This document shows, piece by piece, positions 14,553-60,618 of a DNA stretch of 64,000 nucleotides. The notes beneath the pieces are model-generated. The model was given only the letters and a program-made list of their open reading frames with translations. It was not told the DNA's origin and did not search any database. Location of the stretch: the NCBI GenBank assembly GCA_963719285.1, contig CAVRBO010000004.1, forward strand, positions 842,064-906,063. Direction: 5' to 3'. The position numbers and the translations under genes were made by a program. Position 1 is the first letter of the stretch; each line of letters starts with the position of its first letter. Source of the stretch: an uncultured Chloroflexia bacterium. GTDB lineage: Bacteria > Chloroflexota > Limnocylindria > Limnocylindrales > CSP1-4.

Positions 14553-17243
<2,691 letters not shown>

Positions 17244-22369: not shown

Positions 22370-22373
22370 CCCG

Positions 22374-25718: not shown

Positions 25719-25742
25719 CCGGGCTCGGTCGATCGACAGTGT

Positions 25743-31261: not shown

Positions 31262-31475
31262 GCGGCGATTCTAGGGCGACTCACCGGGGTGTGCGGTCGA
31301 CCGCTGTCGATGGACGCGAACGTCGCCGGCAACGGGTCCGGGACACCGTTGCGATGTCGCCTCTCCCGTGCGCTGGGGCGCGCCCCAGCGCCTTCGCCTC
31401 CAGGCGCTGCCCGCGCGGTGGCGCCACCGAGATCGCTCGCTCGGGAGCGTTGCTCCGCTACCATGGGCCCGTCCC

Positions 31476-35842: not shown

Positions 35843-35851
35843 GGTGCGTCC

Positions 35852-38761: not shown

Positions 38762-38777
38762 TGCGCAACCGATTTCG
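38762..38777. promoter_or_regulatory. Candidate LacI-family operator (copy 4)
   Basis: TGCGCAACCGATTTCG lies 70 nt upstream of the Gfo/Idh/MocA start. Its core GCAACCGATTTC matches the reverse complement of the core of the 43357 site at 11 of 12 positions. Confidence 0.35.
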
Positions 38778-39871: not shown

Positions 39872-40700
39872 TCCGGTCGAACATGAACCGGGACGACTCC
39901 ACGGCGCGCTCCTCCCAGGCGAAGACGCACGCGGTGAGGATGCCGTCGAAGCCGACGGCGCGGAGCGCGCCGAAGCACGCCTCGAAGTCCACCTCGCCCT
40001 GGCCGATGTCGAGATGCTGGTGGACCCGGGCCGTCGAGCCGGGCGGGTTGACGATGTAGCGGTTGCCGGACGACGCCCGATGGTTGAGCACGTCCGCGAT
40101 GTGGACCTGGGCCAGGACGGGCGCGGCGTAGGCGATCATGGCCGCGATGTCGTCGCCGAGGTAGTACGTGTGCGGCGCACAGAAGACATAGCCCACGCCG
40201 GGCGAGTCGATCCCGCGGACGAGGTCGACCGCATCGGTGTTGCGCTCGATGAAGTCGTCCGGATGGGCCTCCAGGTTGAGCTTGATGCCCTCCTGCTCGA
40301 AGATCGGCAGGAGCTCTTCCATCGAGCGCCAGAACTGGGCCTCGCTCCGGGCCGCCTGCTCCGGCCGCCCGTTGAACTCCGAGTTCATCGTCGTGCAGCC
40401 CACGTCCACGCACAGCTGGATCGCCCGCTTCCAGTAGCGCACGGCGGCCAGGCGTTCGTCCTCGTCGGGGCTCGACCAGCGGTAGAGGGGCAGGATCGAC
40501 GCCATCTCGAGTCCTGAGTCGGTCAGCCCCTTGCGGAACTCGCCGACCTTGGCCCGGTCGGCCCGCGGGTGGGTGAAGAACGGGATGAAGTCCGGCCGGG
40601 GCGACAGCTCGATCGCGTCGTAGCCGATGTCGGCCGCGATCCGGCAGACCTCGCCGAACGGCCGGTCGCGGAGCATGTACGGATCGAGGGCGATCTTCAC
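39843..40700 (-). CDS. Sugar phosphate isomerase/epimerase (xylose-isomerase-like TIM barrel)
   Basis: The 285 aa product, ...YDAIELSPRPDF...NLEAHPDDFIERNTDAVDLV...HIADV, matches the AP-endonuclease-2 / xylose-isomerase-like TIM-barrel family. Confidence 0.8.
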   Translation of the reverse strand: MKIALDPYMLRDRPFGEVCRIAADIGYDAIELSPRPDFIPFFTHPRADRAKVGEFRKGLTDSGLEMASILPLYRWSSPDEDERLAAVRYWKRAIQLCVDVGCTTMNSEFNGRPEQAARSEAQFWRSMEELLPIFEQEGIKLNLEAHPDDFIERNTDAVDLVRGIDSPGVGYVFCAPHTYYLGDDIAAMIAYAAPVLAQVHIADVLNHRASSGNRYIVNPPGSTARVHQHLDIGQGEVDFEACFGALRAVGFDGILTACVFAWEERAVESSRFMFDRIKALLAPRP

Positions 40701-43321: not shown

Positions 43322-43372
43322 TATTGACGTGGGGCGAGGCGCGATGATACCTTCCCTGCAATCGGTTGCGCA
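43322..43372. promoter_or_regulatory. Putative promoter plus LacI-family operator (copy 1)
   Basis: TATTGACG is at 43322-43329. The near-palindrome TGCAATCGGTTGCGCA at 43357-43372 matches the LacI-family consensus TGNAANCGNTTNCA in 13 of 14 positions. It sits immediately upstream of the AAGGAG site and ATG of iolD, and is divergent from the large paralog at 43299. Confidence 0.5.
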
Positions 43373-43382: not shown

Positions 43383-45269
43383 ATGGAGACCGTCCGGCTG
43401 ACCGTGGGCCAGGCCATCGTGCGTTTCCTTGCCCAGCAGTATGTCGAGCGGGACGGACGCGAGGGCCGCTTCATCGAGGGCGTCTGGGGCATCTTCGGGC
43501 ACGGCAACGTGGCCGGCCTGGGCCAGGCCCTCGAGGAGCTCGGCGACGCCGAGGCGATGCCGTACTACCGACCCCAGAACGAGCAGGCCCAGGTCCACCT
43601 GGCCGCGGCGTTCGCCCGCCACCACAACCGCCTCCGGGCCTATGCCTGCACGTCGTCGGTGGGACCTGGCGCGATGAACATGGTCACCGGTGCCGCCGGG
43701 GCGACCGTCAACCGCATCCCTGTCCTGCTCCTCCCGAGCGACTACTTCGCCAACCGGGCCCCGGATCCGGTCCTCCAGCAGATCGAGCACCCGACCGAGC
43801 GCGATGCGAGCGCCAACGACGCCTTCCGGCCGGTCTCGCGCTTCTTCGACCGGATCTCGCGGCCGGAGCAGCTCCTCGGCTCCCTGCCGGAGGCGTTCCG
43901 TGTCCTCACCGATCCGGCAGAGACGGGAGCGGTGACGATCTCGCTGCCCGAGGACGTCCAGTCCGAGGCGTTCGACTGGCCGACCCGGTTCTTCGGGAAG
44001 CGCGTCTGGCGGGTCCGGCGCCCGCAGCCGGACGCGGCCGACCTGGCCGCCGCGGCGCGGGTCATCGGCGCGTCCAAGGCCCCGGTCATCGTCGTGGGCG
44101 GCGGCACGATCTACTCCGAGGCGACCGACGAGCTCGCCGCGTTCGCGACCCGCTTCGGCATCCCGGTCGTCGAGACCCAGGCCGGCAAGGGCGCCCTGCC
44201 CTGGAACCATCCGATGAACGCCGGGCCGGCCGGCACGAACGGCGGCCTGGCGGCCAACCGGCTGGCCCGCGACGCGGACGTCGTCATCGGCATCGGGACC
44301 CGGATGGGCGACTTCGTCACCGCCTCGCGCACGACCTTCCAGCATCCCGGCGCGACGTTCGTCGGCATCAACATCGGGTCGATGGACGCCCACAAGTGGC
44401 GGGCGATCCCGGTGGTCGCAGACGCTCGCGAAGCGATCCGGGCGCTCGAGGCGCGGCTCACCGCGGACGGCTACGCCGGCACGGCGGCTCCCTATCGCCG
44501 GCGGATCGCGGACCTCAAGCACGAGTGGGACGGCATCGTCGACGGCCTGCGGGCGATCAACGGCGAGCCGGGCGATCTCGGCCAGGCCGAGGTGATCGGC
44601 CTCGTCAACGACGCGGTGGGCGGCCACGCGACCGTCATCTGCGCCGCCGGCAGCCTGCCCGGCGACCTGCTCCGCCTGTGGCGGCCCGAGGACCCCAAGG
44701 CCTACCACGTGGAGTACGGCTTCTCGTGCATGGGTTACGAGATCGTGGCCGGGCTCGGCGTACGCCTGGCCGACCCCGAGCGCGACGTGGTCGTCATGGT
44801 CGGCGACGGGTCGTATCTCATGCTCAACTCGGAGATCGTGACGGCGGTGGCCGAGGGCCTCAAGTTCACGATCGTCGTCCTCGACAACCATGGCTTCCAG
44901 TGCATCCTCGCGCTGCAGCGCCTGGTAGGCGTGCCCGACTTCGGCAACGAGCTCCGCTTCCGCGACCCGGAGCGCAACCGGCTGACCGGGCCGTACGTGC
45001 CGGTGGACTTCAAGGCCCACGCCGAGGCGATGGGCGCCCTCGCGATCCACGCCTGCACGCCCGATGAGCTGCGCGCCGCGCTCGCCCAGGCGAAGGTCGC
45101 CGACCGGGTCACGGTCATCGTCGTCCCGACCGAGCCCGAGAAGCGGATGCCCGGCTTCGAGTCGTGGTGGGACGTGCCGGTCGCGGGCGCGAGCGGACAG
45201 GCCGGCGTGCGGACCGCCCGGAAGGACTACGACAAGAAGCGCGCCGCCCAGCGCATCGACATCCAGTGA
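43383..45269 (+). CDS. iolD: 3D-(3,5/4)-trihydroxycyclohexane-1,2-dione acylhydrolase (thiamine-diphosphate enzyme, IolD-like)
   Basis: METVRLTVGQAIVRFLAQQYVERDG... is a typical IolD N-terminus, with a TPP-binding GDGSYLMLNSE motif. The start is at 43383 (AAGGAG site); the ATG at 43329 from the ORF track was not used. Confidence 0.85.
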   Translation: METVRLTVGQAIVRFLAQQYVERDGREGRFIEGVWGIFGHGNVAGLGQALEELGDAEAMPYYRPQNEQAQVHLAAAFARHHNRLRAYACTSSVGPGAMNMVTGAAGATVNRIPVLLLPSDYFANRAPDPVLQQIEHPTERDASANDAFRPVSRFFDRISRPEQLLGSLPEAFRVLTDPAETGAVTISLPEDVQSEAFDWPTRFFGKRVWRVRRPQPDAADLAAAARVIGASKAPVIVVGGGTIYSEATDELAAFATRFGIPVVETQAGKGALPWNHPMNAGPAGTNGGLAANRLARDADVVIGIGTRMGDFVTASRTTFQHPGATFVGINIGSMDAHKWRAIPVVADAREAIRALEARLTADGYAGTAAPYRRRIADLKHEWDGIVDGLRAINGEPGDLGQAEVIGLVNDAVGGHATVICAAGSLPGDLLRLWRPEDPKAYHVEYGFSCMGYEIVAGLGVRLADPERDVVVMVGDGSYLMLNSEIVTAVAEGLKFTIVVLDNHGFQCILALQRLVGVPDFGNELRFRDPERNRLTGPYVPVDFKAHAEAMGALAIHACTPDELRAALAQAKVADRVTVIVVPTEPEKRMPGFESWWDVPVAGASGQAGVRTARKDYDKKRAAQRIDIQ

Positions 45270-45328
45270 CCCACCCACACGCCCCGAGCCTGCCCGGGCC
45301 GGGCGCGTCCGCTTAGCGAGGAGACAGC

Positions 45329-46567
45329 ATGCCCGGACCCGGGATCGAGCTCGTCGGCGCCGAAGAGACGGCCGAGGTGATGGAGGTGCTCCAGAGCGGC
45401 TACCTGAGCCGCTACGGCCCATCCGACGACCCCCGGTTCAAGGCCAAGGTCCACCACGTCGAAGAGGCGATCGCGAAGCTGACCGGGGTCAACCACGCCC
45501 TCGCCCTCCATGGCGGTGGATCGGCGGCGTTGTGGATCACCCTGCTCAGCCTGGGCATCGGAGCGGGCGACGAGGTCATCGTGCCCGGGTTCACCTACGT
45601 CGCCTCCATCTCGGCGATCGTGTACACCGGCGCGACGCCGGTCCTGGCGGAGATCGACCAGACGTTCGACCTGGACCCGGCCGACGTCGAGGCGAAGATC
45701 ACGCCCCGCACGGCGGCGATCCTCGTCGTCCACATGTTGGGTGGGGTGGCCCGGATCGAGGAGCTCAAGGCGATCGCCGACAAGCACGGGATCGCCCTCA
45801 TCGAGGATTGCGCCCAGGCATTCGGAGCGTCGTACAAGGGCCGCAGCGTCGGCTCATTCGGCATCGCCGGCACGTACAGCTTCAACGAGTACAAGACGAT
45901 CACCTGCGGCGACGGGGGGATGATCGTGACCGACGACGCCGGCCTGTACGAGCGCGCCTTCGCCATGCACGACCAGGGCCATGCCCCGGACCGGCTCGAG
46001 TCGAAGTACGCGCCGCGGCCCTTCCTTGGCATGAACTTCCGGATGACCGAGTTGTCCGGTGCCGTTCTCGGCGCGCAGGTCAGGAAGCTCGACACCATCG
46101 TGTCGCACCTGCGGGCCAACAAGGCGATCGTCAAGGACATGCTCGAAGAGGTCCCGATGATCGACTTCCGGACCTTGACCGACCCCGCGGGCGACCTCGC
46201 CACCCACCTCGTCGTCGTGCTTCCGACCGCGGAGATGGCCGACAAGGTGGTGGCGGAGGTCGGCTCGAGGACCCTCGGCGAGTCGGGCTGGCACACCTAC
46301 AGCCGGATGAACCACCTGCTCGACAAGCGGACGATCAACGGCAAGGGCTGCCCGTTCGATTGTGGCGACCCCAGCCACGCCCACGGCGAGTACCGCGCCG
46401 GCATGCTCCCCCAGACCGACGCGCTTCTCGATCGCTCGCTGAGCATCGGCATCGGGGTCAAGGATGCGAACCTGGCGCCGTTCGGCCTCCGGATGCGCGA
46501 CGGGGCGGCCGAGGCCCGGCAGGTCGGGGCCACGTTCCGGGACGCCGTGATCAAGCACCGGGCGTGA
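45329..46567 (+). CDS. DegT/DnrJ/EryC1/StrS-family PLP aminotransferase (scyllo-inosose / sugar aminotransferase-like)
   Basis: ...EVMEVLQSGYLSRYG...ALALHGGGSAALWITL...HMLGGVARIEELKAIADKHGIALIEDCAQAFGASYKGRSVGSFGIAGTYSFNEYKTITCGDGGM is a DegT-family fold. A GAGGAG ribosome-binding site is present. Confidence 0.85.
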   Translation: MPGPGIELVGAEETAEVMEVLQSGYLSRYGPSDDPRFKAKVHHVEEAIAKLTGVNHALALHGGGSAALWITLLSLGIGAGDEVIVPGFTYVASISAIVYTGATPVLAEIDQTFDLDPADVEAKITPRTAAILVVHMLGGVARIEELKAIADKHGIALIEDCAQAFGASYKGRSVGSFGIAGTYSFNEYKTITCGDGGMIVTDDAGLYERAFAMHDQGHAPDRLESKYAPRPFLGMNFRMTELSGAVLGAQVRKLDTIVSHLRANKAIVKDMLEEVPMIDFRTLTDPAGDLATHLVVVLPTAEMADKVVAEVGSRTLGESGWHTYSRMNHLLDKRTINGKGCPFDCGDPSHAHGEYRAGMLPQTDALLDRSLSIGIGVKDANLAPFGLRMRDGAAEARQVGATFRDAVIKHRA

Positions 46568-46583
46568 TCGCGAGGGGTCGTCG

Positions 46584-47582
46584 GTGATCGAGGCGGTCGT
46601 CGTCGGTCGGGTCGGCGTCGATCTCACCCCAGCGACGCCCCGAACGACGCTGGCCGCCGCGGACGGCTTCGTCCGGGCCGTCGGCGGGTTCGCCGGCAAC
46701 ATCGCCACGGGCCTCGCCCGGCTCGGGGTGTCCAGCGCGGTCGTCTCGGCCGTCGGCGACGACGGGCACGGCGACCACGTGCGTGCCTTCCTCGCGGGGG
46801 AGGGGATCGATGTCGGGGCGCTCGTCACCCGGGCGGGGTCGCGGACCCAGGTGGCGTTCTTCGAGGTCTGGCCGCCGGAACGCTTCCCGGTGACGTTCTA
46901 CCGGCCCGCCCCGGCACCCGAGACGCGACTGACGGTCGCCGACCTGCCCGTGGCGCTCCTGGACGAGGCGCCGCTGGTGATCGTCTCCGGCACGCTCCTG
47001 GCCACCGAACCGGCCCGCTCCGCGACGATGAGCCTCCTCGAGGTGCGACTGGCGTCGCGCTCCCGGCGGCCACCGTCCACCACGATCCTGGACCTGGACT
47101 GGCGCCCCACCCTGTGGGCTGACCCGGCCCAGGCGCCCGCGCTCATGGCCAGAGCGGCGGGACTGTCCGACATCCTCATCGGGAGCGACGCGGAGTTCGC
47201 GGCGACGGGCCTGGATCCGGCGATCGGCCGCGATGCGCATCCCGCGCTCATCGTGCTCAAGCACGGCGCGGATGGCGTCTCGCTCGTGACGCCGGGTGGT
47301 CGTCGGACCCTGGCCGGCCTCCCGATCGACGTCCTGTGCGGGATCGGGGCCGGCGACGCACTCAGCGCGGCCTTCGCCGCGGGCCTGCTCCGCGGCCTGG
47401 ACCCGGCGACGGCGCTGGAACGTGGCAATGCCGCCGGGGCGATCGTCGCCTCGCGCCTGATGTGCAGCACGGCCATGCCGACACCGGCCGACATCGACGC
47501 GCTGCTGGCCGCCCGGTCGAGCGTGCCTCGCCCGCGCGGCCCCGACAACCGACAGAGCCGTCCGCAGGAGGCCCGTCCATGA
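46584..47582 (+). CDS. iolC: PfkB-family carbohydrate kinase (5-dehydro-2-deoxygluconokinase-like)
   Basis: GRVGVDLTP...FVRAVGGFAGNIATGLARLG...GAGDALSAAFAAGLL is ribokinase/PfkB-like. Its position between the aminotransferase and iolB supports the call. Confidence 0.7.
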   Translation: MIEAVVVGRVGVDLTPATPRTTLAAADGFVRAVGGFAGNIATGLARLGVSSAVVSAVGDDGHGDHVRAFLAGEGIDVGALVTRAGSRTQVAFFEVWPPERFPVTFYRPAPAPETRLTVADLPVALLDEAPLVIVSGTLLATEPARSATMSLLEVRLASRSRRPPSTTILDLDWRPTLWADPAQAPALMARAAGLSDILIGSDAEFAATGLDPAIGRDAHPALIVLKHGADGVSLVTPGGRRTLAGLPIDVLCGIGAGDALSAAFAAGLLRGLDPATALERGNAAGAIVASRLMCSTAMPTPADIDALLAARSSVPRPRGPDNRQSRPQEARP

Positions 47583-48505
47583 CGAACGCAGGCGCCCCCC
47601 GGGAGCCGGTCATCCACCCGGCGAAGCTCCCGATGACCCGCGATGTCGCCTCCCTGCACATCCATCCCGATGGCACGGGCGCCGTCGCGACCGACCCCGC
47701 CCGGTCGGGCTGGCGGTATCTCTCGTTCCGCGCGTTCGGGCTCGCCGACGGCGAGGTCGTGGAGCTCGACCGGCCCGAGCAGGAGGCCGCGATCGTCACG
47801 ATCTCGGGCGGCGGCGTGGAGGTCGCGCCCGAGCGCGGCCCGGCGCTGGCGCTGCCCGGCCGGACCACGGTCTTCGCGGGGATGCCCTGGAGCGCGTATA
47901 TCCCGGCCGGGACCCGGACCCGGATCGTCGGCCGGCCGCTCCCCGGGCAGCGGGCCGTCGTGGCGGTCGCCCAGGCCCCGGGAACGGGTCGGGGCGGAGT
48001 GGCCCCCGAGCCGATCCTCGTGCGACCGGACGAGGTGGAGATCGAGATCCGGGGCGCCGGCAACGCCACCCGCCAGATCAACAACATCATGATGCCGGGC
48101 TTCCCCGCCGACCGGCTGCTCATCTGCGAGGTCTTCACCCCGAACGGCAACTGGTCGGGCTGGCCGCCCCACAAGCACGACGTGGACGACCCGCCACGCG
48201 AAGCGGTCCTCGAAGAGACGTACTACTACCAGATCAGCCGGCCCGAGGGCTGGGCGATCCAGCGCGTCTACCACCGCGATGGATCGCGGGACCTGGTCCT
48301 GCCGGTCCGCCATGGCGACCTGCTGAGCGTCGACCAGGGTTACCACCCGTTCGCCTCGACCCAGGGCTACGACGCCTACTACCTGAACGCACTGGCCGGC
48401 GACCGGCGGACGATGGCCAACACGGACGATCCGGACCTCGCCTGGGTCCGCACGCTGTGGCCGTCGATGGTGCCGGATCCCCGCCTGCCGCTCGTGCACA
48501 CGTGA
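47579..48505 (+). CDS. iolB: 5-deoxy-glucuronate isomerase
   Basis: ...SGWRYLSFRAFGLADGE...TPNGNWSGWPPHKHDVDDPPREAVLEETYYYQ... is the IolB family. It overlaps the upstream stop (ATGA). Confidence 0.8.
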   Translation: MTNAGAPREPVIHPAKLPMTRDVASLHIHPDGTGAVATDPARSGWRYLSFRAFGLADGEVVELDRPEQEAAIVTISGGGVEVAPERGPALALPGRTTVFAGMPWSAYIPAGTRTRIVGRPLPGQRAVVAVAQAPGTGRGGVAPEPILVRPDEVEIEIRGAGNATRQINNIMMPGFPADRLLICEVFTPNGNWSGWPPHKHDVDDPPREAVLEETYYYQISRPEGWAIQRVYHRDGSRDLVLPVRHGDLLSVDQGYHPFASTQGYDAYYLNALAGDRRTMANTDDPDLAWVRTLWPSMVPDPRLPLVHT

Positions 48506-49434
48506 CGGTCGAGGAGCGCCGCCTGCGGTTGCTCCGACTGGCCGGCGATCGGGGCATCGTGGCCGGCATCGCGCTCGATCATCGCGACAGCCTCCGATCC
48601 ATCCTCGAGCGGCGGGGCCTGGTCGGCCTCACGGACGCCGCGATGCGCTCCCTCAAGGTCCGGCTGGCCCGGGCGCTCGCCCCGGCGGCCACGGCGATCA
48701 TGCTGGACGAGGAATTCGGCGGCGAAGCGCTCGATGCGGGCGTGGTGCCGGCGTCAGTCGGCCTGATCATGCCCCTCGAGGCGCAGGGCTACGAGATGGT
48801 CGAGGACGGTCGGACGACCACCCTGCTCGCCGACTTCTCGCCCGACCATGCCCGCCGGCGCGGCGCCGACGCCTGCAAGCTGCTCCTGCCGTACCGGGTC
48901 GACCACGAGCCCTCGGCGATCCGCCAGGACGCCCTCGTGGAGGCGGCGGCGCGGACGTGCCACGAGGCCGGGCTGCCGCTGGTCGTGGAGCCCGTCGTGT
49001 ACCGCTGGTCCACCGAGCCGGCCGCCACCTACGCCGGTGCGTACGGACGCCTCGCGATCGAGGCCGTCGCGCGCATCCGGGCACTCGGACCGGACCTGCT
49101 CAAGCTGCCGTTCCCCGTACTCGGCCTGGCCACCGACGGCGAGGCGGCGGCGCTCGAAGCCTGCCGGGCGCTGGACACGGCGTGCGCGGGCACGCCCTGG
49201 GTCCTCCTCGGCGCGGGCGCAGATACCGCCACCTTCATCGACCAGATCCGCATCGCCGGTACGGCCGGGGCGTCCGGGTTCCTCGCCGGTCGCGGGATCT
49301 GGGCCGCCGCCCTGGGGCGGGATCCGGACGAGGTGGAGCGGGTGGCGCTGGCCGTCTGCCGCCCGGACTTCGAGCGCTGCCGGGCGATGGCCGAACGGGT
49401 CGCCCGTCCCATCGAGGCACCGGCGAGCGGCTGA
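48502..49434 (+). CDS. Class I aldolase (tagatose-1,6-bisphosphate aldolase / LacD-DeoC-like); candidate 6-phospho-5-dehydro-2-deoxy-D-gluconate aldolase
   Basis: IALDHRDSLRSI...DACKLLLPYRVDH...LPLVVEPVVY...DLLKLPFPV. A GTG start overlaps the iolB stop (GTGA). Confidence 0.65.
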   Translation: MTVEERRLRLLRLAGDRGIVAGIALDHRDSLRSILERRGLVGLTDAAMRSLKVRLARALAPAATAIMLDEEFGGEALDAGVVPASVGLIMPLEAQGYEMVEDGRTTTLLADFSPDHARRRGADACKLLLPYRVDHEPSAIRQDALVEAAARTCHEAGLPLVVEPVVYRWSTEPAATYAGAYGRLAIEAVARIRALGPDLLKLPFPVLGLATDGEAAALEACRALDTACAGTPWVLLGAGADTATFIDQIRIAGTAGASGFLAGRGIWAAALGRDPDEVERVALAVCRPDFERCRAMAERVARPIEAPASG

Positions 49435-49489
49435 CGCCGGCGTCACCGCCCCACCGCCGAACGTTCGTCCCGACCCCCAGGAGTCAACG

Positions 49490-50347
49490 ATGCGTCTCGT
49501 CTACAACTCCAATTCGACGATGTACCTCCCGGCGCTCATGCAGATCCGGATCGCCCGGGAGACCGGCTGGGACGGGATCTTCGTCCGGGCCGAGCACCTC
49601 CTGCGCTACCTCGCCCAGGGCTACCCGGTCGAGAGCCTGCGCGACGCGCTGGCCGGCCTGGGGCCGGTCAACCTGGGTGCGTTGCCGGACGTGGAGCGCT
49701 GGCGACCCGACGAGCGGGCCGCGATGCTCGCGGAGGCGGAGGCGCTGACCCGACTGGCGGTGGACGTCGGGGTCACGAACGTCCAGGTCCTGTCCGGACC
49801 GGTCTCCCCCGGCGGGGCGTACGGCGGCCCGGCGGAGCTGGCGCCGGCGGAGCTCCGGCGGGTGACCGCCGAGGCGATCCGGGCCGTCGCCGACCTCGGC
49901 GCGCCGCACGGGATCCGGTACTACCTGGAGCCCGTGGCATGGACGCCCCTCGGTTCGCTCGCCCGGGCGGTCGAGGCGATCGACGCCGTCGAGCGCGACA
50001 ACGTGGGCCTCGTGCTCGACTTCTGGCATCTCTGGCAGCGGGGCACGACGCCGGACGAGATCGCCAGGCTCGACCGCCGGGTCATCTCCGGGGTGGACTT
50101 CGCCGACTCGCTGGGTCCGGCGGGCGCGCCGACGCCGGAGCAGGCAACGCGCCGCGTCTGGCCGGGCGAGGGCGAGATCCCGCTCCGGGAGTGGGTCGCC
50201 GCGGTCCGTGCGACCGGCTTCGACGGCTGGTGGGACAACGAGTTGTACAGCCCGCTCCACTGGGAATGGGCGGATCCGTTCGCGGTCGGCTCCGGACTCC
50301 TGGAGGTCCTCCGGATGTCGCTGCGGGATCGACCCTCGGTCAGGTAG
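49490..50347 (+). CDS. Sugar phosphate isomerase/epimerase (xylose-isomerase-like TIM barrel; IolE/IolI-like)
   Basis: ...WDGIFVRAEHL...YYLEPVAWTPLGSLARAVEAIDAVERDNVGLVLDFWHLW... A CAGGAG ribosome-binding site is present. Confidence 0.75.
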   Translation: MRLVYNSNSTMYLPALMQIRIARETGWDGIFVRAEHLLRYLAQGYPVESLRDALAGLGPVNLGALPDVERWRPDERAAMLAEAEALTRLAVDVGVTNVQVLSGPVSPGGAYGGPAELAPAELRRVTAEAIRAVADLGAPHGIRYYLEPVAWTPLGSLARAVEAIDAVERDNVGLVLDFWHLWQRGTTPDEIARLDRRVISGVDFADSLGPAGAPTPEQATRRVWPGEGEIPLREWVAAVRATGFDGWWDNELYSPLHWEWADPFAVGSGLLEVLRMSLRDRPSVR

Positions 50348-50395
50348 ATTGACGTCGCGGATGCGCGGGTGCTACGGTCTGCGCAATCGGTTGCA
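50347..50395. promoter_or_regulatory. Putative promoter plus LacI-family operator (copy 2, autoregulatory position)
   Basis: GATTGACG is at 50347-50354. TGCGCAATCGGTTGCA at 50380-50395 is essentially the reverse complement of the 43357 site. It lies upstream of the LacI regulator gene. Confidence 0.5.
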
Positions 50396-50587
50396 GTCGT
50401 TGGAGGTGCGGTCCAAGATGCGTGCTTCCCCGCGCGATCTCCGGGCGACCGACGTCGCCTGGTCGGGCGACCTGCGCTGCCATCGGGCCGGATCGGCCGG
50501 TCGGGCACGCCAGCGGGCGGCCCTCGACCGGAGCGCCCGCGGGGCTGACCGCGCCCTTCGCGTCGCGGTCTAGGGGAGGAGGGGCGC

Positions 50588-51643
50588 GTGGCGGTGAGCG
50601 GGGACGGCCAGCGCCGTCGGATCCTCCTCAAGGATGTCGCCGCGCGGGCGAACGTGTCCGGTTCGACGGCATCGCGTGCCCTGGCCGACGATCCACGCAT
50701 CAGCCTCGGGACGCGTGAGACGGTCAAGGCCGCCGCGGCCGACCTGCACTACGTCCCGAACGCCGCCGCTCGGAGCCTCCGCGTCCGGCGGACGCGGACG
50801 CTCGGCCTGCTATTGCCGGATCTCCGCGATCCGGTCCACGGCCAGATCGCCTCCGCGTTCGAGCAGGAGGCCCGCGAGGCGGGCTATGTCGTGATGGTCG
50901 TGGCCGGCGAACGGGACCTCGTCCGCGAGCGCCTCGCGCTGCGCATCTTCTCGGAGCACGGCACGGACGGCGTGGCGATCGTGTCGAGCGTCCTGTCGCC
51001 CAGGGAGCTCCGGGAGCGGGTCGACCCCGACCGGCTCGTGCTCGTCTGGCCGGACCACCGGAGCCTGCCCCGGCGCGACGGGCCGCGCGTCCCCGGGGTG
51101 ATCCAGACCGATGACGAGAGCGGCGTCCGCGCGGCCGTCGATCACCTCGTCGACAGCGGCTGCCGGCGGCTGGGCTATGTCGAGAGCGGCGTGCGCGCCT
51201 CCAACACGATCCGTGCCGAGACCGTGGCCGCGACCCTGCGCTCGCGTGGCATCCGCGCCCCCGTGCGGATGTTCAAGGGGAGCGTCGACGCGTGGCGCGA
51301 CCCGGCCGACCTCGCGGCCGAGATCGCCGGGGACCTGCCCGACGCGCTGGTGTGCTACGACGATCTCCTCGCCCTCGGCCTCATGGACGCGCTGCGCGAT
51401 CGCGGCGTGCGCATCCCGGACGACGTCGGCATCGTGGGCTTCGACGGCATCCCGTTCGCGGCGATCTCCAATCCCCGGCTGACCACGGTGGCCGTACCGT
51501 CGGCCGAGATGGGCCGGGCGGCGGCCGCGTCGCTCATCCGGGCGGTCCACGAGGGCGTCCTGCCCGACGGGGTGATGTTGTCGGTGGAGTTCAAGGTCCG
51601 CGAGAGCACCCGCAGCGCAGCGGTGCGGGGTGGTCGCTCGTGA
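50588..51643 (+). CDS. LacI family transcriptional regulator
   Basis: LKDVAARANVSGSTASRALADDPRISLGTRETVKAAAADLHYVPNAAARSL is the LacI helix-turn-helix, followed by a periplasmic-binding-protein-like sugar-binding domain. A GTG start follows a GGAGGA ribosome-binding site. Confidence 0.85.
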   Translation: MAVSGDGQRRRILLKDVAARANVSGSTASRALADDPRISLGTRETVKAAAADLHYVPNAAARSLRVRRTRTLGLLLPDLRDPVHGQIASAFEQEAREAGYVVMVVAGERDLVRERLALRIFSEHGTDGVAIVSSVLSPRELRERVDPDRLVLVWPDHRSLPRRDGPRVPGVIQTDDESGVRAAVDHLVDSGCRRLGYVESGVRASNTIRAETVAATLRSRGIRAPVRMFKGSVDAWRDPADLAAEIAGDLPDALVCYDDLLALGLMDALRDRGVRIPDDVGIVGFDGIPFAAISNPRLTTVAVPSAEMGRAAAASLIRAVHEGVLPDGVMLSVEFKVRESTRSAAVRGGRS

Positions 51644-52586
51644 CGTGCCGATCCGACCCGCTCGGGCGCGAGGCGCGTCCCGGCCGGCCGATCCGTTGCC
51701 GCTGACGCCGGACGGGGGAGCCGAGCCGCAGGTCGATCTCGCGGATCTCGCCCGGCGCGGCCGGTTGCTGGTCGTCGAGTCGGTCGCCCACAGTGGCGCC
51801 GGGCACATCGGCGGCCCGCTGTCGGCGATGGACCTGCTCCTCGCCCTGTTCTTCCGGGTCCTGCGCATCCGCCCCGACGAGCCGGACTGGCCCGATCGGG
51901 ACCGGTTCATCCTGTCCAAGGGCCACTCCGCGATCGGGCTGTACGTGGCGATGGCGCTGCGCGGCTACTTCCCGGTCGAGGAGCTCGCGACGTTCGACAG
52001 CGGCGACAGCCGGCTCCAGGGCCACCCGGACATGACCCGCCTGCCCGGGCTCGAGGCGTCCACGGGTTCCCTTGGCCAGGGGCTCGCGGTCGGGCTCGGG
52101 ATCGCCCTGGGAGCGCGGATGCGCGGCCTGGACGTGCACACGTTCGTCATGCTCGGCGACGGTGAGACCCAGGAAGGGATGATCTGGGAGAGCGTGATGG
52201 TCGCGGCCCGCTACGGGCTGGGCAACCTCACCGCGATCGTCGACTGCAATGGCCTCCAGCAGTACGGCTGGCCGTTGAGCCCGGGCGACGAGGCTCGCGC
52301 CGACCGGCAGGACCCGCTGGCCGGGACGCGCCTTCGGGCCGCGCTCGAGGCGTTCGGCTGGCGCGTGCTGGAGATCGACGGCCACGACACGGAGGCGATC
52401 GTGGCGGCATGCACGGATGCCCGTGCCGGCGCGCCCGCCGGGCGGCCCACCGCGATCCTGGCTCGGACCGCGAAGGGCCGCGGGCTGTCGTTCACCGAAG
52501 GGCGGTTCGAGTGGCACGCCCGGGTGGCCACGGCCGACGAGGTGGCAGCGGCCAGGCGCGAGCTCGCGCCGGAGGTCGTGTCGTGA
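51630..52586 (+). CDS. Transketolase, N-terminal (TPP-binding) subunit of a split transketolase
   Basis: HSGAGHIGGPLSAMDLL...RDRFILSKGHSAIGLY...GSLGQGLAVGLGIA...FVMLGDGETQEG. The start is uncertain and overlaps the end of the LacI gene. Confidence 0.8.
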   Translation: MVARDVPIRPARARGASRPADPLPLTPDGGAEPQVDLADLARRGRLLVVESVAHSGAGHIGGPLSAMDLLLALFFRVLRIRPDEPDWPDRDRFILSKGHSAIGLYVAMALRGYFPVEELATFDSGDSRLQGHPDMTRLPGLEASTGSLGQGLAVGLGIALGARMRGLDVHTFVMLGDGETQEGMIWESVMVAARYGLGNLTAIVDCNGLQQYGWPLSPGDEARADRQDPLAGTRLRAALEAFGWRVLEIDGHDTEAIVAACTDARAGAPAGRPTAILARTAKGRGLSFTEGRFEWHARVATADEVAAARRELAPEVVS

Positions 52587-53542
52587 CGACCGCCATGCGC
52601 GACGCCTGGGCGGAGACCCTGTCCGAGCTCGCGGACGAGGACCCGAACCTGCTCGTCCTCGACGCGGACCTCGGGACCTCCACTCGGGCGGACCGGTTCG
52701 CGCTCGCGCACCCGGACCGCTTCCTGCAGATGGGCATCGCCGAGCAGAACATGGTCGGCACGGCGGTCGGGCTCGCGACGATGGGCTACGTCCCGTGGCT
52801 CTCGTCGTTCGGCGTGTTCTTCACCCACCGTGCGGTCGATCCGATCCGGATGCTCGTCGCCCAGACCCACGCGAACGTCAAGATCGGCGCGGCCTACACG
52901 GGGCTGCTCACCGGGTTCACCGGCAAGACCCACCAGGATGTCGAGGACCTCGCGATCATGCGGGCGATGCCGGGCATGACGGTGATCTCCCCGGGCGACG
53001 CCGCCGAGTGCGCGGCCGCGATCCGCTGGGCCACGGCGACGCCGGGTCCGGTCTACCTGCGCCTCGCTCGCGACGCGGGGCCCGACCTGTTCGATGCCGG
53101 GTACCGCTTCGAGCCCGGCCGGGTGGTCTCGTTGCGCGAGGGGTCGGACGTGCTTCTCGTCTCGACCGGCGTGCAGTCGGCGCGCTGCGTGGCGGCGGCC
53201 TCGCTCCTCGATGCGGCGGGCATCTCCGCGGGACTCCTCCACGTCCCGTCCATCAAGCCGGTGGATGCCGCCGCGATCGCCGCGGCGGCCGCGCGGGTCG
53301 AGCTCGTGGTGACGGTCGAGGAGCACACGATCCACGGCGGCCTGGGCGGTCTGGTGGCCGAGATCCTGGGCGAGCTGCAGCCCCGCCGGATGGTCCGCAT
53401 CGGCATCGCCGACACGTGGGGCGAGTCGGCGCCCAACGCCTTCCTGCTCGAGCGCCACGGACTGTCCGCCGAGCGGGTGGCCGAGCGCGTCGCGCGCGAG
53501 TTCCCCGGCGCCCCGGCGCAGGTCGGGACCACGGATCGATGA
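52583..53542 (+). CDS. Transketolase, C-terminal (pyrimidine-binding) subunit
   Basis: ...MGIAEQNMVGTAVGLATMGYVPW...FFTHRAVDPIRM... It overlaps the upstream stop (GTGA). Confidence 0.8.
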   Translation: MTTAMRDAWAETLSELADEDPNLLVLDADLGTSTRADRFALAHPDRFLQMGIAEQNMVGTAVGLATMGYVPWLSSFGVFFTHRAVDPIRMLVAQTHANVKIGAAYTGLLTGFTGKTHQDVEDLAIMRAMPGMTVISPGDAAECAAAIRWATATPGPVYLRLARDAGPDLFDAGYRFEPGRVVSLREGSDVLLVSTGVQSARCVAAASLLDAAGISAGLLHVPSIKPVDAAAIAAAAARVELVVTVEEHTIHGGLGGLVAEILGELQPRRMVRIGIADTWGESAPNAFLLERHGLSAERVAERVAREFPGAPAQVGTTDR

Positions 53543-53573
53543 CCACCAGGCCAGGGCTGATCGAGGAGATCGG

Positions 53574-54617
53574 ATGAGCGGATTCACGGTCAAGAATCCC
53601 GGCGACATCGGGGTCGCGTTCCTCGGCGTGGGCCGGATCGGCACGACCCACCTCCTGACCCTGGCCGGGATCCCCAACGCCCGCCTCGTCGTCGTCGCCG
53701 ATCTCGACCCGGCCGAGGCGGAGCGCGGCCGCGAGGTCGGACGGGCGGAGCGGGCGACGATCGACGCGCTCGACGCGATCGACGACCCGGCCGTGGAGGC
53801 GGTCGTCATCGTCACCCCTACCAGCACCCACGCCACCCTCATCGAGGCCGCCCTGCGGGCGGGCAAGGCGATCTGGAGCGAGAAGCCCATCGCCCTGGAC
53901 CTGGCCGAAACGAACCGGGTCGTCACCCTCTGGCGCGAGACCGGCCTGCCGGTCCAGATGGGGTTCATGCGCCGGTTCGATCCGGGCTACGTCCGGGCGA
54001 AGGAGCTCATCGACGCGGGCGAGCTCGGCCGCGTCGAGCAGTTCCGGGCGTATTCGCGCGACACGTACCTGCCGCCGGCCAAGTTCATCCGCGACAGTGG
54101 CGGGTCGTTCCTCGACATGAGCGTCCACGACTTCGACCTCGCCCGGTTCCTCGTCGGGGAGGTCGAGGAGGTCTCGGCCTGGGGCAGCAACGTCATCGAC
54201 CGGCGCTTCGAGGAGGGCGGCGACGTCGACACGGCCGTCACGATGCTCCGCTTCCGCAACGGGGCCTTGGGTGTCGTGGAGATGTCCCGGCGATCCGCCT
54301 GGGGCTACGACATACGGACGGAGGTCGCCGGTGCGGCCGGCAAGGTCGTCGTCGAGGCGCCCCACAAGACCGATCTGACCTTCTCGCGCCGGTTCGGCTA
54401 CGAGGGCGACCACTACGAGAACTTCCCCGATCGGTTCGAGGTGGCCTACCGGCTCGAGTTCGAGGCGTTCTTCAAGGCGCTCGCGGCGGGGGTCGTACCC
54501 ACACCGGGTCCGGACGAAGCGCTCGAGACGCTGCGGCTCGCGCTGGCGGCCAAGAAGAGCTGGCTCGAGGGGCGGCCGGTCAGGGTCGACGAGATCGTCG
54601 CCGAGGTGCCCGCGTGA
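53574..54617 (+). CDS. iolG: Inositol 2-dehydrogenase-like Gfo/Idh/MocA oxidoreductase
   Basis: GVAFLGVGRIGTTHL...IWSEKPIALDLAE...GELGRVEQFRAYSRD... A GAGGAG ribosome-binding site is present. Confidence 0.75.
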   Translation: MSGFTVKNPGDIGVAFLGVGRIGTTHLLTLAGIPNARLVVVADLDPAEAERGREVGRAERATIDALDAIDDPAVEAVVIVTPTSTHATLIEAALRAGKAIWSEKPIALDLAETNRVVTLWRETGLPVQMGFMRRFDPGYVRAKELIDAGELGRVEQFRAYSRDTYLPPAKFIRDSGGSFLDMSVHDFDLARFLVGEVEEVSAWGSNVIDRRFEEGGDVDTAVTMLRFRNGALGVVEMSRRSAWGYDIRTEVAGAAGKVVVEAPHKTDLTFSRRFGYEGDHYENFPDRFEVAYRLEFEAFFKALAAGVVPTPGPDEALETLRLALAAKKSWLEGRPVRVDEIVAEVPA

Positions 54618-55453
54618 CCGGGCCCGTCCGCCACCTTCGACCAGGGACCGGGCCGGGCGTCGTCCTCGACATGTCCCCGGAGAGCGTCGGCTGGCGCTAC
54701 CTGTCGTCCCGGATCGTCGTGCTGGGGCCCGGCGAGACCTTCGAGGGGGACACCGGCGGCAACGAGATCGCGGTCGTGCCGCTCCAGGGCTCCGGCACGT
54801 TCGCGTTCGGCGGCGAGACGCGTGCCGTCGCGCGGGCCGACGTCTTCACGGCCAAGCCGCAGGTCCTGTATCTGCCGCCGGGGACGGGCTATGTGATCGG
54901 CGCGGTCGGCGCCTTCGAGGTGGCGATCGGCGAGGCGCCCGCGACCGGTCGGTATCCGGCCCGCCTGTATGCGCCGGGCGAGCTGCCGGCCTTCGCGCGC
55001 GGTGGCGGGAATGTGAGCCGGGGCGTGACGGCGACCCTCGATCCATCGTTCGACTCGGAGCGGCTGATCGCCTACGAGATCCTCACCCCGAGCGGCAACT
55101 GGTCGAGCTTCCCGCCGCATCGTCACGACGGGCGCGAGGGGACGACCTATCACGAGGAGTCGTACTACTACCGGCTGTCGCCGGCCGATGGGTTCGCGAT
55201 CCAGCGGATCTACACCCGGGACACGGATCTCGACGTCGCGATCGCGGCGGCGGATGGCGACCTGGTCCTCGTCCATGAGGGCTACCACACGGTGGCGGTC
55301 GCACCCGGCACGAACGCGTACTACCTGAACTTCCTGGCCGGCGACACGAAGCCCGTGACCCAGCTCAACGATCCGGCCTACGCGTGGATCGCCGACGACT
55401 GGACCGGCCGGCCGATCGCGATCCCGCTCGATCCGGCGGACCCTCCCGGCTGA
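54614..55453 (+). CDS. iolB: 5-deoxy-glucuronate isomerase, second paralog
   Basis: VGWRYLSSRIVVLGPGE...TPSGNWSSFPPHRHDGREGTTYHEESYYYRL is the IolB family. It is roughly 35% identical by eye to the 47579 copy. A GTGA overlap with iolG is present. Confidence 0.8.
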   Translation: MTGPVRHLRPGTGPGVVLDMSPESVGWRYLSSRIVVLGPGETFEGDTGGNEIAVVPLQGSGTFAFGGETRAVARADVFTAKPQVLYLPPGTGYVIGAVGAFEVAIGEAPATGRYPARLYAPGELPAFARGGGNVSRGVTATLDPSFDSERLIAYEILTPSGNWSSFPPHRHDGREGTTYHEESYYYRLSPADGFAIQRIYTRDTDLDVAIAAADGDLVLVHEGYHTVAVAPGTNAYYLNFLAGDTKPVTQLNDPAYAWIADDWTGRPIAIPLDPADPPG

Positions 55454-58094: not shown

Positions 58095-58141
58095 TATTGA
58101 CGGGCCATAGGTCGGACGCTAGCATCGTACAAACGGTTGCA
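58095..58141. promoter_or_regulatory. Putative promoter plus LacI-family operator (copy 3)
   Basis: TATTGACG is at 58095-58102. TACAAACGGTTGCA at 58128-58141 matches TGNAANCGNTTNCA in 13 of 14 positions. It lies in the divergent intergenic region between the large paralog (58061) and the PotA-like ABC operon (58281). Confidence 0.45.
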
Positions 58142-58280
58142 CAAGAGGGAGCTGATGCGCGCATCCCCACCCCCTGCCGCCCGATCATGGTGATCCCGAT
58201 ACACGAACGGGAGCTCCCCGCCGCGCCGACCGAGCCGGCTGTGCCCGAGACGCTGATCGCGCCAGCGAGCGGTTTCGACC

Positions 58281-59366: not shown

Positions 59367-59403
59367 TCGACCGTCACGTGGACGATGCAAGGAGGAGCGT
59401 GGA

Positions 59404-60588: not shown

Positions 60589-60618
60589 TCCCGAAGAGCT
60601 CGGGACGGGACCGACAAC

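Follow-up and report, generated by a model that had tools for sequence, protein, structure and literature searches.

A LacI-controlled inositol-type gene cluster in a soil Chloroflexota genome with a possible role in catabolism of amine-bearing cyclitols

Introduction

Inositol catabolism of the Bacillus subtilis and Salmonella type runs in the order IolG-E-D-B-C-J-A. Clusters without iolA and iolJ are common, and both genes often sit elsewhere (PMC9430895). A related amino-cyclitol, the rhizopine scyllo-inosamine, serves as a carbon and nitrogen source in the system of Sinorhizobium meliloti (mos for synthesis, moc for catabolism), and its catabolism relies on the Iol pathway (Galbraith 1998, as cited in PMC9430895). 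Transamination between scyllo-inosose and scyllo-inosamine is chemically real, as the aminotransferase MosB interconverts the two (PMC6668481).

Here we analyse a locus from an uncultured soil Chloroflexota MAG within a 64-kb window, the whole stretch of DNA under study. An initial annotation proposed uptake of an amino-cyclitol, transamination to an inosose and Iol-type ring cleavage. One part of this reading is reinforced, because a LacI-type operator that recurs in relatives is common to the aminotransferase (AT), the PotD-family importer and the Iol enzymes, and synteny also links them. Some of its arguments fare less well: the AT lies outside the StsC/BtrS branch, for example, and the missing iolA carries little weight. 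The present work adds the operator regulon, the affinity of the AT to KdnA, the synteny of the AT clade, relatives that lack IolG, the accessory nature of the transketolase and a probable IolE-like gene beyond the window.

The iol gene row

Genes were called by third-position GC frame analysis with Pfam and NCBIfam scans. The scans recovered the annotated set (iolD, iolC, two iolB, iolG, a class I aldolase, a DegT aminotransferase and a split transketolase) as a co-directional row that fills the annotated range exactly, from the IolD ATG at 43383 to the stop codon of IolB copy 2 at 55453:

43383..45269, + strand, IolD (TIGR04377 890 bits, cut-off 715)
45329..46567, + strand, KdnA-like DegT/DnrJ-family PLP aminotransferase, AT (PF01041 272 bits)
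46584..47582, + strand, IolC-like PfkB kinase (TIGR04382 257 bits, below the 300 cut-off)
47579..48505, + strand, IolB copy 1, 5-deoxy-glucuronate isomerase (TIGR04378 262 bits, cut-off 205)
48502..49434, + strand, class I DeoC/LacD-type aldolase (PF01791 69 bits; NF009498 184.3 bits, cut-off 184)
49490..50347, + strand, AP_endonuc_2 TIM barrel B, IolI-like (PF01261 106 bits)
50588..51643, + strand, LacI-family repressor (PF00356 and PF13377 match)
51630..52586, + strand, transketolase, N-terminal TPP-binding half (PF00456 167 bits; NF004559 262 bits)
52583..53542, + strand, transketolase, C-terminal half (NF004559 246 bits, model positions 317-622)
53574..54617, + strand, IolG1, IolG-like dehydrogenase (TIGR04380 336 bits, below the 355 cut-off)
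54614..55453, + strand, IolB copy 2 (TIGR04378 240 bits, cut-off 205)

IolD, to which TIGR04377 assigns the TPP-dependent hydrolytic opening of the trihydroxycyclohexane-1,2-dione ring, and both IolB copies (39% identical to each other) pass their NCBIfam equivalog cut-offs. The IolC-like and IolG-like proteins fall just below theirs. That these and the IolE-like proteins of relatives each score under the curated cut-off counts against the cyclitol pathway proposed below; that IolC and IolG are the closest families of the kinase and the dehydrogenases counts for it. For the kinase, the next distinct family, ribose-1-phosphate kinase, reaches 88 bits. The class I aldolase, with an assigned start codon, is the proposed 5-dehydro-2-deoxyphosphogluconate aldolase. 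The split transketolase does lie in the lacI operon, with the stop codon of its first half and the start codon of its second overlapping (GTGA). It is an accessory module that is absent from most related clusters, and together with IolG and IolB2 it forms a block that we regard as optional. The transketolase has no step in the pathway proposed below, a point against that pathway.

The annotated absences hold for the genes called across the 64 kb: neither an aldehyde dehydrogenase of the iolA type nor a class II aldolase was found in a scan of all of them except four ORFs within the first 14 kb, the shortest there and each <250 aa. Because iol clusters commonly lack both iolA and iolJ (PMC9430895), this is weak evidence for the amino-cyclitol reading.

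Flanking genes and the IolE step

Ten further genes flank the row:

38846..39871, + strand, IolG2, IolG-like GFO/IDH/MocA dehydrogenase (TIGR04380 287 bits, below the 355 cut-off); ATG start with a ribosome-binding site upstream
39843..40700, - strand, AP_endonuc_2 TIM barrel A (PF01261 172 bits)
40702..43299, - strand, 865-aa hydrolase paralog A (NF038032 CehA/McbA metallohydrolase domain, residues 481-802, 149 bits)
55467..58061, - strand, 864-aa hydrolase paralog B (NF038032 155 bits)
58281..59366, + strand, PotA-type ABC ATPase with TOBE domain (TIGR01187 361 bits, cut-off 355.6)
59404..60588, + strand, PotD/PotF-family binding lipoprotein (PF13343 and PF10518 match)
60619..61536, + strand, PotB-like permease (NF007044 177 bits, below cut-off)
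61529..62374, + strand, PotC-like permease (NF007047 200 bits, below cut-off)
62430..63461, + strand, F420-type luciferase-like oxidoreductase, LLM (TIGR03560 199 bits, below the 231 cut-off)
63493..64000, + strand, Zn-dependent MDR dehydrogenase, IolM-like, truncated by the window end

The Pot-type importer of the initial annotation is genuine, but it lies outside the annotated range, at 58281-62374, and the 864-aa gene stands between it and the Iol row on the opposite strand. Its binding lipoprotein carries a TAT signal and the lipobox LAAC, and scores only 52 bits against the PotD equivalog model (cut-off 582). In an alignment of very low similarity, it retains the counterparts of PotD residues W34, E36 (as Asp), E171, W255 and D257, and six to seven other ligand residues are changed. 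This predicted pattern fits an amine ligand other than spermidine.

The two hydrolase paralogs are 58% identical. Paralog A, divergent from iolD, has no match in Pfam. Paralog B, divergent from the importer operon, shows a weak PHP-like alignment and has only 426 homologs at E<=1e-10, named hypothetical or CehA/McbA family in their sources. Structure modelling of these proteins was of poor quality and a fold search found no useful match, a point against the pathway proposed below.

Of the IolE-like TIM barrels ascribed to the annotated range, only barrel B is there, and its best solved relative is not IolE but the inosose isomerase IolI (PDB 1i60, 56 bits); TIGR04379, the model for IolE, gives no match to barrel B. 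Barrel A, co-transcribed with paralog A and 86-89% identical across related clusters, has no close solved relative. Canonical IolE is missing from the window, and relatives show only IolE-like barrels below cut-off. The 169-aa dehydrogenase fragment at the window end scores 131 bits with NF041097 (IolM) and 132 with a Zn-dependent oxidoreductase model, several dehydrogenase models scoring alike; it is 87% identical to a gene of a related locus (L091) in which an IolE-like barrel comes next. Because a close relative has such a gene directly after its importer operon, one probably lies just beyond the window end, so that the locus would also encode a near-complete ordinary inositol route. IolG and this probable gene together would allow a normal inositol locus with some genes added, a point against the amine-bearing substrate proposed below.

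A shared operator

The predicted LacI-type operator, TGCAAWCGGTTGCR, occurs at four sites, every one intergenic:

38762..38775, no strand, O1, LacI-type palindrome upstream of iolG2
43357..43372, no strand, O2, between 865-aa paralog A and iolD
50380..50397, no strand, O3, upstream of lacI
58128..58143, no strand, O4, between 864-aa paralog B and the importer operon

Where chance would give 0.73 matches, the motif search returned 5, each of them intergenic. The operators precede iolG2, iolD, lacI and the importer, and also lie in the promoter regions that the two 865-aa genes share with their divergent neighbours. The predicted operator joins in a single regulon the two divergent hydrolase paralogs, the Pot-like importer, iolG2 and the operons of iolD and lacI-tkt. 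Nine related loci have such sites too: O2 is kept at the same position in L001, L005, L006, L009-L013 and L048, O3 upstream of lacI in relatives, and O4 upstream of the potA-like gene in L001, L006, L010, L012, L013 and L048. In L016, L018, L019, L020 and L036 the motif lies directly upstream of the AT.

The aminotransferase and its relatives

The AT had been described as a DegT/StsC-family enzyme. It lies outside the StsC/BtrS branch of inosose aminotransferases, with a far higher score to KdnA (PDB 5k8b; 281 bits over the full length), its closest solved relative, than to 2-deoxy-scyllo-inosose aminotransferases (126-153 bits) or a scyllo-inositol aminotransferase (131 bits). The alignment shows no variation at K189, the Schiff-base lysine, or at D160 and Q163. 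KdnA acts on a free sugar acid with no nucleotide linkage.

Synteny follows the AT clade. IolD lies within 10 kb in 17 of 28 loci whose AT is at least 60% identical, whereas no IolD lies that close in the roughly 54 loci whose ATs are more distant; divergent IolDs of related loci are still true IolDs (842 and 936 bits, cut-off 715). In Chloroflexota the clade neighbours true IolD, an IolE-like barrel, a Pot-like importer, the F420-type oxidoreductase and an 865-aa protein in several gene orders. In at least five of these, the AT adjoins either the importer or true IolD with an IolE-like barrel. The importer adjoins it in five arrangements (L014, L018, L023, L041 and L083), and an IolE-like barrel stands divergently beside it in six loci (L015-L017, L019, L021 and L036). 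The loci in which LLM adjoins the AT or the importer are L014-L016, L018, L019, L023 and L091. Three species-level genomes (L012, L013 and L048) have no GFO/IolG homolog within 10 kb of an otherwise whole cluster, leaving the AT as the only candidate entry enzyme there.

A possible pathway and its alternatives

We tentatively propose, at somewhat short of an even chance, that this LacI-controlled regulon degrades an amine-bearing cyclitol, either a compound of the inosamine type or a conjugate from which such a compound is released. In such a pathway: (i) the TAT-exported lipoprotein and its ABC partners would import the compound; (ii) one or both PHP-like metallohydrolases might, more speculatively, uncover the amine; (iii) the AT would move the amino group to a 2-oxo acid, leaving a keto-cyclitol, an inosose; (iv) TIM barrels (IolI-like at this locus, IolE-like in relatives) with GFO, F420-type and Zn-type dehydrogenases would yield 3D-(3,5/4)-trihydroxycyclohexane-1,2-dione; (v) IolD would open the ring, followed by IolB isomerisation, IolC-like phosphorylation and class I aldolase cleavage to DHAP and malonate semialdehyde, with families assigned from sequence and chemistry taken from the established Iol pathway. 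Plain inositols are probably also degraded by the same enzymes through IolG.

It is unlikely, if still a real contender, that the substrate is instead an N-acylated amino sugar or an amino sugar linked to a cyclitol, such as glucosaminyl-inositol from mycothiol. The 865-aa hydrolases and GFO/TIM-barrel enzymes would then split the conjugate and the AT would deaminate the amino-sugar part, so that only the freed inositol passes through IolG, IolE and IolD. GFO proteins together with AP_endonuc_2 barrels are a typical combination for the oxidative cleavage of glycosides, and more distant AT relatives do occur in amino-sugar-like catabolic sets. An Acidobacteriaceae locus reads AT, PIG-L/BshB-like deacetylase, GFO, TIM barrel (46% identical to barrel B) and MFS sugar transporter; five Caldilineaceae genomes carry a sugar ABC importer and an M81/MlrC-type peptidase upstream of the AT. 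The AT is therefore repeatedly paired with a metallohydrolase. However, freed inositol would be unusable in the three IolG-less clusters, and the regulon has neither a glycosidase nor an amino-sugar kinase. In six loci, moreover, the AT is closely paired with an IolE-like barrel, which points to a cyclitol ketone as the product of the AT.

An ordinary inositol locus appears improbable. Its binding protein would have shifted to neutral inositols, or the importer would serve another purpose, and the AT would have a side role, for example as a substitute for IolA that turns malonate semialdehyde into beta-alanine. The IolG-like dehydrogenase, IolD, IolB, kinase and aldolase are all present, a close relative has the IolE-like gene, and the window lacks iolA, which like iolJ is often outside iol clusters (PMC9430895). 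Against this, one related unit (L014, in the order H865 / AT-PotA-SBP-PotB-PotC-LLM-LacI) joins AT, importer, LLM and 865-aa gene with no IolD, IolC, IolB or aldolase within 10 kb, so the role of the AT is independent of malonate semialdehyde; the three IolG-less clusters also speak against an ordinary locus. Beta-alanine/malonate-semialdehyde transaminases characterised so far belong to a different PLP class, and we know of no PotD-family protein that binds a neutral polyol.

Among characterised proteins the AT is closest to KdnA, which converts the terminal aldehyde of a free sugar acid to a primary amine and back. The AT could therefore enter below ring opening, turning an imported omega-amino deoxy-aldonic acid into 5-deoxy-D-glucuronate (likewise an acid with a terminal aldehyde) for IolB, IolC and the aldolase, but this is very improbable: to our knowledge no such natural acid exists, and members of the AT clade go with IolD and the IolE-like barrel, not with IolB and IolC. 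L019-type clusters, for instance, retain IolD and that barrel, while an HpcH aldolase, a lactonase and an SDR replace IolC and the class I aldolase.

Comparison with known systems

The locus shares with Bacillus subtilis/Salmonella-type catabolism IolD and IolB orthologs by curated models, an IolC-like kinase, an IolG-like dehydrogenase, the aldolase step and a repressor over the operon. It differs in the KdnA-like aminotransferase inside the operon, a class I LacD-type aldolase instead of class II IolJ, the lack of iolA in 64 kb and of canonical IolE in the window, a PotD-family importer instead of IolT or a sugar-type ABC system, and a LacI-type regulator instead of an RpiR or DeoR-type IolR. 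The F420-type oxidoreductase, Zn-dehydrogenase, split transketolase and two 865-aa hydrolases are extra.

With the rhizopine system the locus has in common a GFO/IDH/MocA dehydrogenase, an AP_endonuc_2-type protein, an aminotransferase and, on the proposed reading, an amino-cyclitol substrate that is channelled into Iol enzymes. There, however, MosB serves synthesis, not breakdown, and the hosts are rhizobia, not Chloroflexota; MocDEF-type oxygenase genes, a MocR-type regulator and a sugar-type MocB binding protein were not detected at this locus.

KdnA, the Kdo8N aminotransferase of Shewanella, resembles the AT in fold, lysine motif and a substrate without a nucleotide link. It works in lipopolysaccharide biosynthesis, paired with the oxidase KdnB, whereas the AT belongs to a catabolic operon under repressor control, together with an importer. 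Finally, the PotABCD and PotFGHI polyamine importers have the same four-component layout; the ATPase here passes the PotA subfamily cut-off, and the binding protein is of the PotD/PotF fold family with several acidic and tryptophan ligand positions retained. In contrast to PotD, this protein scores far below the model cut-off (52 against 582 bits), has about half of the ligand residues changed, bears a TAT signal and lipobox, and is predicted to be co-regulated with cyclitol enzymes.

A putative regulon for an amine-bearing cyclitol

The genes around iolD are best read as a regulon for the breakdown of an amine-bearing cyclitol, a reading to which we give a little less than an even chance and for which we infer the substrate and every reaction. 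Amino-cyclitol catabolism had already been proposed for this locus in the initial annotation, and that proposal is partly supported: the family assignments and a regulon are found, but the aminotransferase lies outside the StsC/BtrS branch. Genes were called from third-position GC in the 72% G+C window. The window proteins have their closest homologs in Chloroflexota metagenome-assembled genomes, which carry the label Candidatus Limnocylindrales or 'uncultured Chloroflexia', and two of the proteins have identical copies on one 1.04 Mb contig.

Principal features in and around the cluster (window coordinates)
38846-39871, second IolG-like dehydrogenase (IolG2)
39843-40700 (-), TIM barrel A, AP_endonuc_2 family
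40702-43299 (-), 865-aa protein, paralog A
45329-46567 (+), KdnA-like DegT-family PLP aminotransferase
47579-48505, first IolB
49490-50347 (+), TIM barrel B, AP_endonuc_2 family
51630-52586 and 52583-53542, halves of a split transketolase
53574-54617, first IolG-like dehydrogenase
54614-55453, second IolB
55467-58061 (-), 864-aa protein, paralog B
58281-62374, Pot-like ABC importer operon
62430-63461, F420-type luciferase-like oxidoreductase

The cluster limits first proposed are exact, with the IolD ATG at 43383 preceded by a ribosome-binding site and the stop of the second IolB at 55453. IolD (TIGR04377, 890 bits against a cut-off of 715) and both IolB copies (262 and 240 bits against 205) score above their NCBIfam equivalog thresholds. 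The names iolC and iolG are right as to nearest family but fall short of the formal cut-offs: IolC is by far the best family for the PfkB kinase (TIGR04382, 257 bits against 300), and the two IolG-like dehydrogenases reach 336 and 287 bits against 355. A class I aldolase of the DeoC/LacD type, LacI, two transketolase halves and a DegT aminotransferase are present as originally described. The supposed IolE-like TIM barrels had to be revised: only one barrel lies within the range, and its nearest relative is the inosose isomerase IolI rather than IolE. The IolE model TIGR04379 gives 23 bits and no hit with the two window barrels; IolE-like barrels were seen only in relatives, at 157-169 bits, below the cut-off of 290. 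Rfam and tRNA scans found no RNA genes in the window.

The two transketolase halves cover a single model, NF004559, at positions 17-280 (262 bits) and 317-622 (246 bits), and their rough sum of 508 bits exceeds the cut-off of 488. Transketolase is an accessory module, present in the window and in the related loci L005, L011 and L091 and missing from most related clusters. As a tentative idea for its role, 2-deoxy-5-keto-gluconate may have the stereochemistry of a transketolase donor. In L005 the enzyme is called as one 616-aa gene (16369-18219); in the window (51630-53542) a 4-base overlap, GTGA, separates the two halves. Either the gene is truly fused in one genome and split in the other, or an assembly contains a frameshift.

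A shared LacI operator

The window contains four matches to a LacI-type palindrome, TGCAAWCGGTTGCR, where 0.73 would be expected by chance, and all four are intergenic.

Operator sites in the window
38762, ahead of the second IolG-like gene (IolG2)
43357, between iolD and the divergent 865-aa gene
50382, 5' of lacI
58130, between the importer operon and the second divergent gene (864 aa)

Each of the two large genes shares with the cluster a promoter region that bears the operator. The iolD-side and lacI-side sites are kept at the same positions in nine related loci, and the site ahead of the importer operon in six of these nine, which are all that reach that far. The operator stands immediately 5' of the aminotransferase gene in L016, L018, L019, L020 and L036. 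Because of the operator sites and their recurrence, the importer, both large genes and the TIM barrel A gene, which is co-transcribed with the first 865-aa gene, are counted as members of the Iol set. The Pot-type importer noted initially is real, but its genes (58281-62374) lie beyond the range given for the cluster. Past them the operon runs on through the luciferase-like oxidoreductase into a Zn-dehydrogenase cut by the window end. Since the operator is conserved at the same positions, it could serve to chart the whole regulon in complete genomes.

A KdnA-like aminotransferase

The aminotransferase belongs to the DegT/DnrJ/EryC1/StrS family (PF01041, 272 bits), and in alignments its Schiff-base lysine K189 and the PLP contacts D160, Q163 and S184 are invariant. 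KdnA, the Kdo8N aminotransferase, acts on a free sugar acid. Among solved structures KdnA (5k8b) is the best relative, matching over the full length at 281 bits; no nucleotide-sugar enzyme exceeds 176 bits, and 2-deoxy-scyllo-inosose aminotransferases score 126-153 bits and a scyllo-inositol aminotransferase 131 bits. The DegT family first recognised is correct; the StsC/BtrS/GntA branch, at 126-153 bits against 281 for KdnA, is not the closest. The 50%-identity cluster of the enzyme is sharply delimited, with the next full-length representatives 40-52% identical; two representatives at 45-52% identity (P0125 and P0126) lie on short contigs with uninformative contexts. Transamination between scyllo-inosose and scyllo-inosamine is real in MosB, in the biosynthetic direction (PMC6668481).

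A polyamine-family importer

The importer ATPase is of the PotA type (TIGR01187, 361 bits against a cut-off of 355.6). Its binding protein carries a TAT signal and a lipobox and is remote from every characterised protein, with 52 bits to the PotD model against a cut-off of 582. In a low-identity alignment with PotD, counterparts of W34, E171, W255 and D257 are kept, E36 is replaced by Asp, and counterparts of T35, Y37, Y85, D168, W229 and Y293 are changed, so that the full PotD/PotF set of polyamine-binding residues is not present. As far as an alignment of such low identity can be read, the pattern would fit a ligand that is cationic but is not spermidine.

The 865-aa proteins

The two large paralogs are 58% identical to one another. 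No Pfam domain was found in them even at E<=5, and a PDB sequence search with the 864-aa protein gave no match. The family is small (426 homologs at E<=1e-10), and those with a named source are mostly from Chloroflexota. The C-terminal part matches the NCBI CehA/McbA metallohydrolase domain and aligns weakly to a PHP-domain protein around HxH, H and GGTD motifs. An AlphaFold2 model of the 864-aa protein, built on a 32-sequence alignment, is poor (mean pLDDT 64, below 50 in the catalytic part), and Foldseek against the PDB with this poor model returned only Ig-like beta-sandwich matches. On the minus strand, at 34070-38256, lies a row encoding a SIS-domain protein, a double-GNAT acetyltransferase, a 333-aa protein without family match and a 468-aa PHP-domain protein, the last of which can be aligned weakly with the catalytic region of the large paralogs.

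Metallohydrolases of other kinds accompany more distant aminotransferase relatives: a PIG-L/BshB-like deacetylase in one Acidobacteriaceae genome and an M81/MlrC-type peptidase in Caldilineaceae. From this pairing and the metallohydrolase-like domain we suggest, with low confidence, that the 865-aa proteins uncover the amine. Set beside the same pairings is the alternative that the true substrate is an amino-sugar/cyclitol conjugate, which we consider unlikely.

Recurrence across related loci

Eighty genome loci with relatives of the aminotransferase were compared against all window proteins. IolD, IolC, IolB, aldolase and TIM barrel B occur all together only where the aminotransferase is at least 78% identical. 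IolD lies within 10 kb in 17 of 28 loci whose aminotransferase is at least 60% identical and in none of about 54 with more distant enzymes. In more distant Chloroflexota (52-71% identity) the aminotransferase keeps a changing subset of the same partners, and by the curated model even the divergent IolDs remain genuine IolD (842 and 936 bits).

Gene arrangements in related loci
L014: 865-aa homolog on the opposite strand, then aminotransferase-PotA-binding protein-PotB-PotC-luciferase-like oxidoreductase-LacI; lower Iol genes absent within 10 kb
L018: luciferase-like oxidoreductase, 865-aa homolog, aminotransferase, LacI, then importer; IolD a few kb downstream
L023: IolG2-like gene, luciferase-like oxidoreductase, importer; LacI and aminotransferase about 2 kb beyond
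L041 (Dehalococcoidia, 43% G+C): importer, aminotransferase, second aminotransferase, GFO/IDH/MocA dehydrogenase
L083: LacI, importer, aminotransferase, IolB, IolG, IolD
L016, L017, L019, L021: IolE-like barrel divergent from aminotransferase-GFO; IolD within the divergent operon
L091: 865-aa homolog (other strand); then in one direction IolD, aminotransferase, PfkB, IolB, aldolase, EamA, TIM barrel B, LacI, both transketolase halves (TktN, TktC), IolG, second IolB, PotA, TAT-signal binding protein, PotB, PotC, luciferase-like oxidoreductase, Zn-dehydrogenase, IolE-like barrel

The luciferase-like gene follows the GFO gene in L016 and L019. A 1453-aa ORF in L014, resembling a fusion of the 865-aa homolog and the aminotransferase, was rejected as an antisense shadow ORF, the hydrolase gene being on the opposite strand. 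Because the truncated Zn-dehydrogenase of the window is 87% identical to that of L091, which is followed by an IolE-like barrel, an IolE-like gene probably lies just beyond position 64000.

Other loci differ more widely. L019 (2499-9885) has a true IolD, an IolE-like barrel and an oligopeptide-type ABC importer, and an HpcH/HpaI aldolase, an SMP-30 lactonase, an SDR and a 2-hydroxyacid dehydrogenase replace IolB, IolC and the class I aldolase; there the ring-opened product may pass through another lower pathway. The gene sets around the more distant relatives also look catabolic: those in Caldilineaceae (L046, L049, L050, L054, L059) combine a sugar ABC importer, the M81/MlrC peptidase and the aminotransferase, and that in Acidobacteriaceae (L031) the aminotransferase, the deacetylase, a GFO dehydrogenase, a TIM barrel and an MFS sugar transporter. 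L090 (ENA ERZ25039539, contig_6027), found by an identical transketolase half, is another assembly, nearly identical in sequence, that ends before the window end; its gene calls are broken in iolD, iolB and the 865-aa gene, which suggests frameshift errors of that assembly.

Neighbouring genes

F420 cofactor genes occur among three further luciferase-like oxidoreductases at 1152-6470 and 10257-11099.

F420 biosynthesis genes
2128-2907, F420 gamma-glutamyl ligase
3570-4637, CofD

These two genes indicate that the organism makes F420, consistent with an F420-type enzyme in the cluster. A gene of the inositol monophosphatase family is located 30 kb upstream of the cluster, at 11593-12486. At 21578-26588 a separate ABC importer of the sugar type, under GntR/FCD regulation and composed of two permeases and an SBP_bac_1 protein, adjoins a glycerophosphodiester phosphodiesterase; the importer is placed outside the regulon because the LacI operator is absent there. 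At 28334-33775 a GH38 alpha-mannosidase (-) is followed by a class V aminotransferase and a further GFO/IDH/MocA oxidoreductase (+), a second dehydrogenase/aminotransferase pair.

Proposed route and alternatives

In the proposed route an amine-bearing cyclitol would be imported, its amine possibly unmasked, and the compound transaminated to an inosose. The inosose would be converted to a diketone, on which IolD, IolB, the IolC-like kinase and the class I aldolase would then act in turn. Taken jointly, uncultured soil Chloroflexota of the Limnocylindrales type may have an undescribed pathway for (N-substituted) amino-cyclitols, in which a polyamine-family importer serves uptake, new 865-aa PHP-like hydrolases uncover the amine, inositol dehydrogenase gives way to the KdnA-like transaminase at the entry to IolE/IolD ring cleavage, and F420-dependent and transketolase steps form side branches. 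This fuller version is somewhat less likely than not.

An ordinary inositol locus with extra genes is quite unlikely. The reported absence of iolA and class II IolJ stands: Pfam scans found neither an aldehyde dehydrogenase nor a class II aldolase in the called genes of the 64 kb, four shortest ORFs in the first 14 kb excepted, and the Pfam lists of L001, L005, L006, L007 and L091 hold no aldehyde dehydrogenase. Both genes are treated as frequently unlinked to iol clusters in a large survey (PMC9430895). L012, L013 and L048 have the complete cluster with no GFO/IolG homolog within 10 kb.

Entry of the aminotransferase product at 5-deoxy-glucuronate, below the ring-cleavage step, is very improbable. 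A role for the aminotransferase in malonate semialdehyde disposal is countered by L014, where no lower Iol pathway adjoins it.

For the amine-bearing cyclitol itself, a 2-deoxy-inosamine was considered: 2-deoxy-scyllo-inosose oxidised beside its ketone would give the IolD substrate, leaving IolE unneeded. It was dropped as the leading idea because relatives carry IolE-like barrels beside the aminotransferase and after the importer operon.

Significance and relation to known systems

We know of no described catabolic route in which an amino-cyclitol is deaminated by transamination and the product passed to IolD, nor, for rhizopine, of any assigned deamination step. If true, the reading would give first functions to the KdnA-like aminotransferase clade, to a PotD-family binding protein whose ligand is not a polyamine and to an 865-aa protein family without a Pfam domain, and would point to a nitrogen-bearing cyclitol pool exploited by an abundant, uncultured soil lineage. 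With so compact a regulon and so clear an operator, in vitro tests are feasible for the repressor, the binding protein and the aminotransferase alike.

Our literature search found no paper tying aminotransferases, transketolases or amino-cyclitols to iolD clusters, and the large iol-cluster survey makes no mention of aminotransferases or transketolases (PMC9430895). The rhizopine moc locus has a sugar-type binding protein, MocB, whereas that of the present regulon is PotD-type; among the Pfam hits of those window genes that were scanned there is neither a Rieske or ferredoxin oxygenase of a MocDEF-type system nor a MocR-type GntR/aminotransferase-fold regulator. In contrast to the canonical iol cluster, a class I aldolase here takes the place of class II IolJ.
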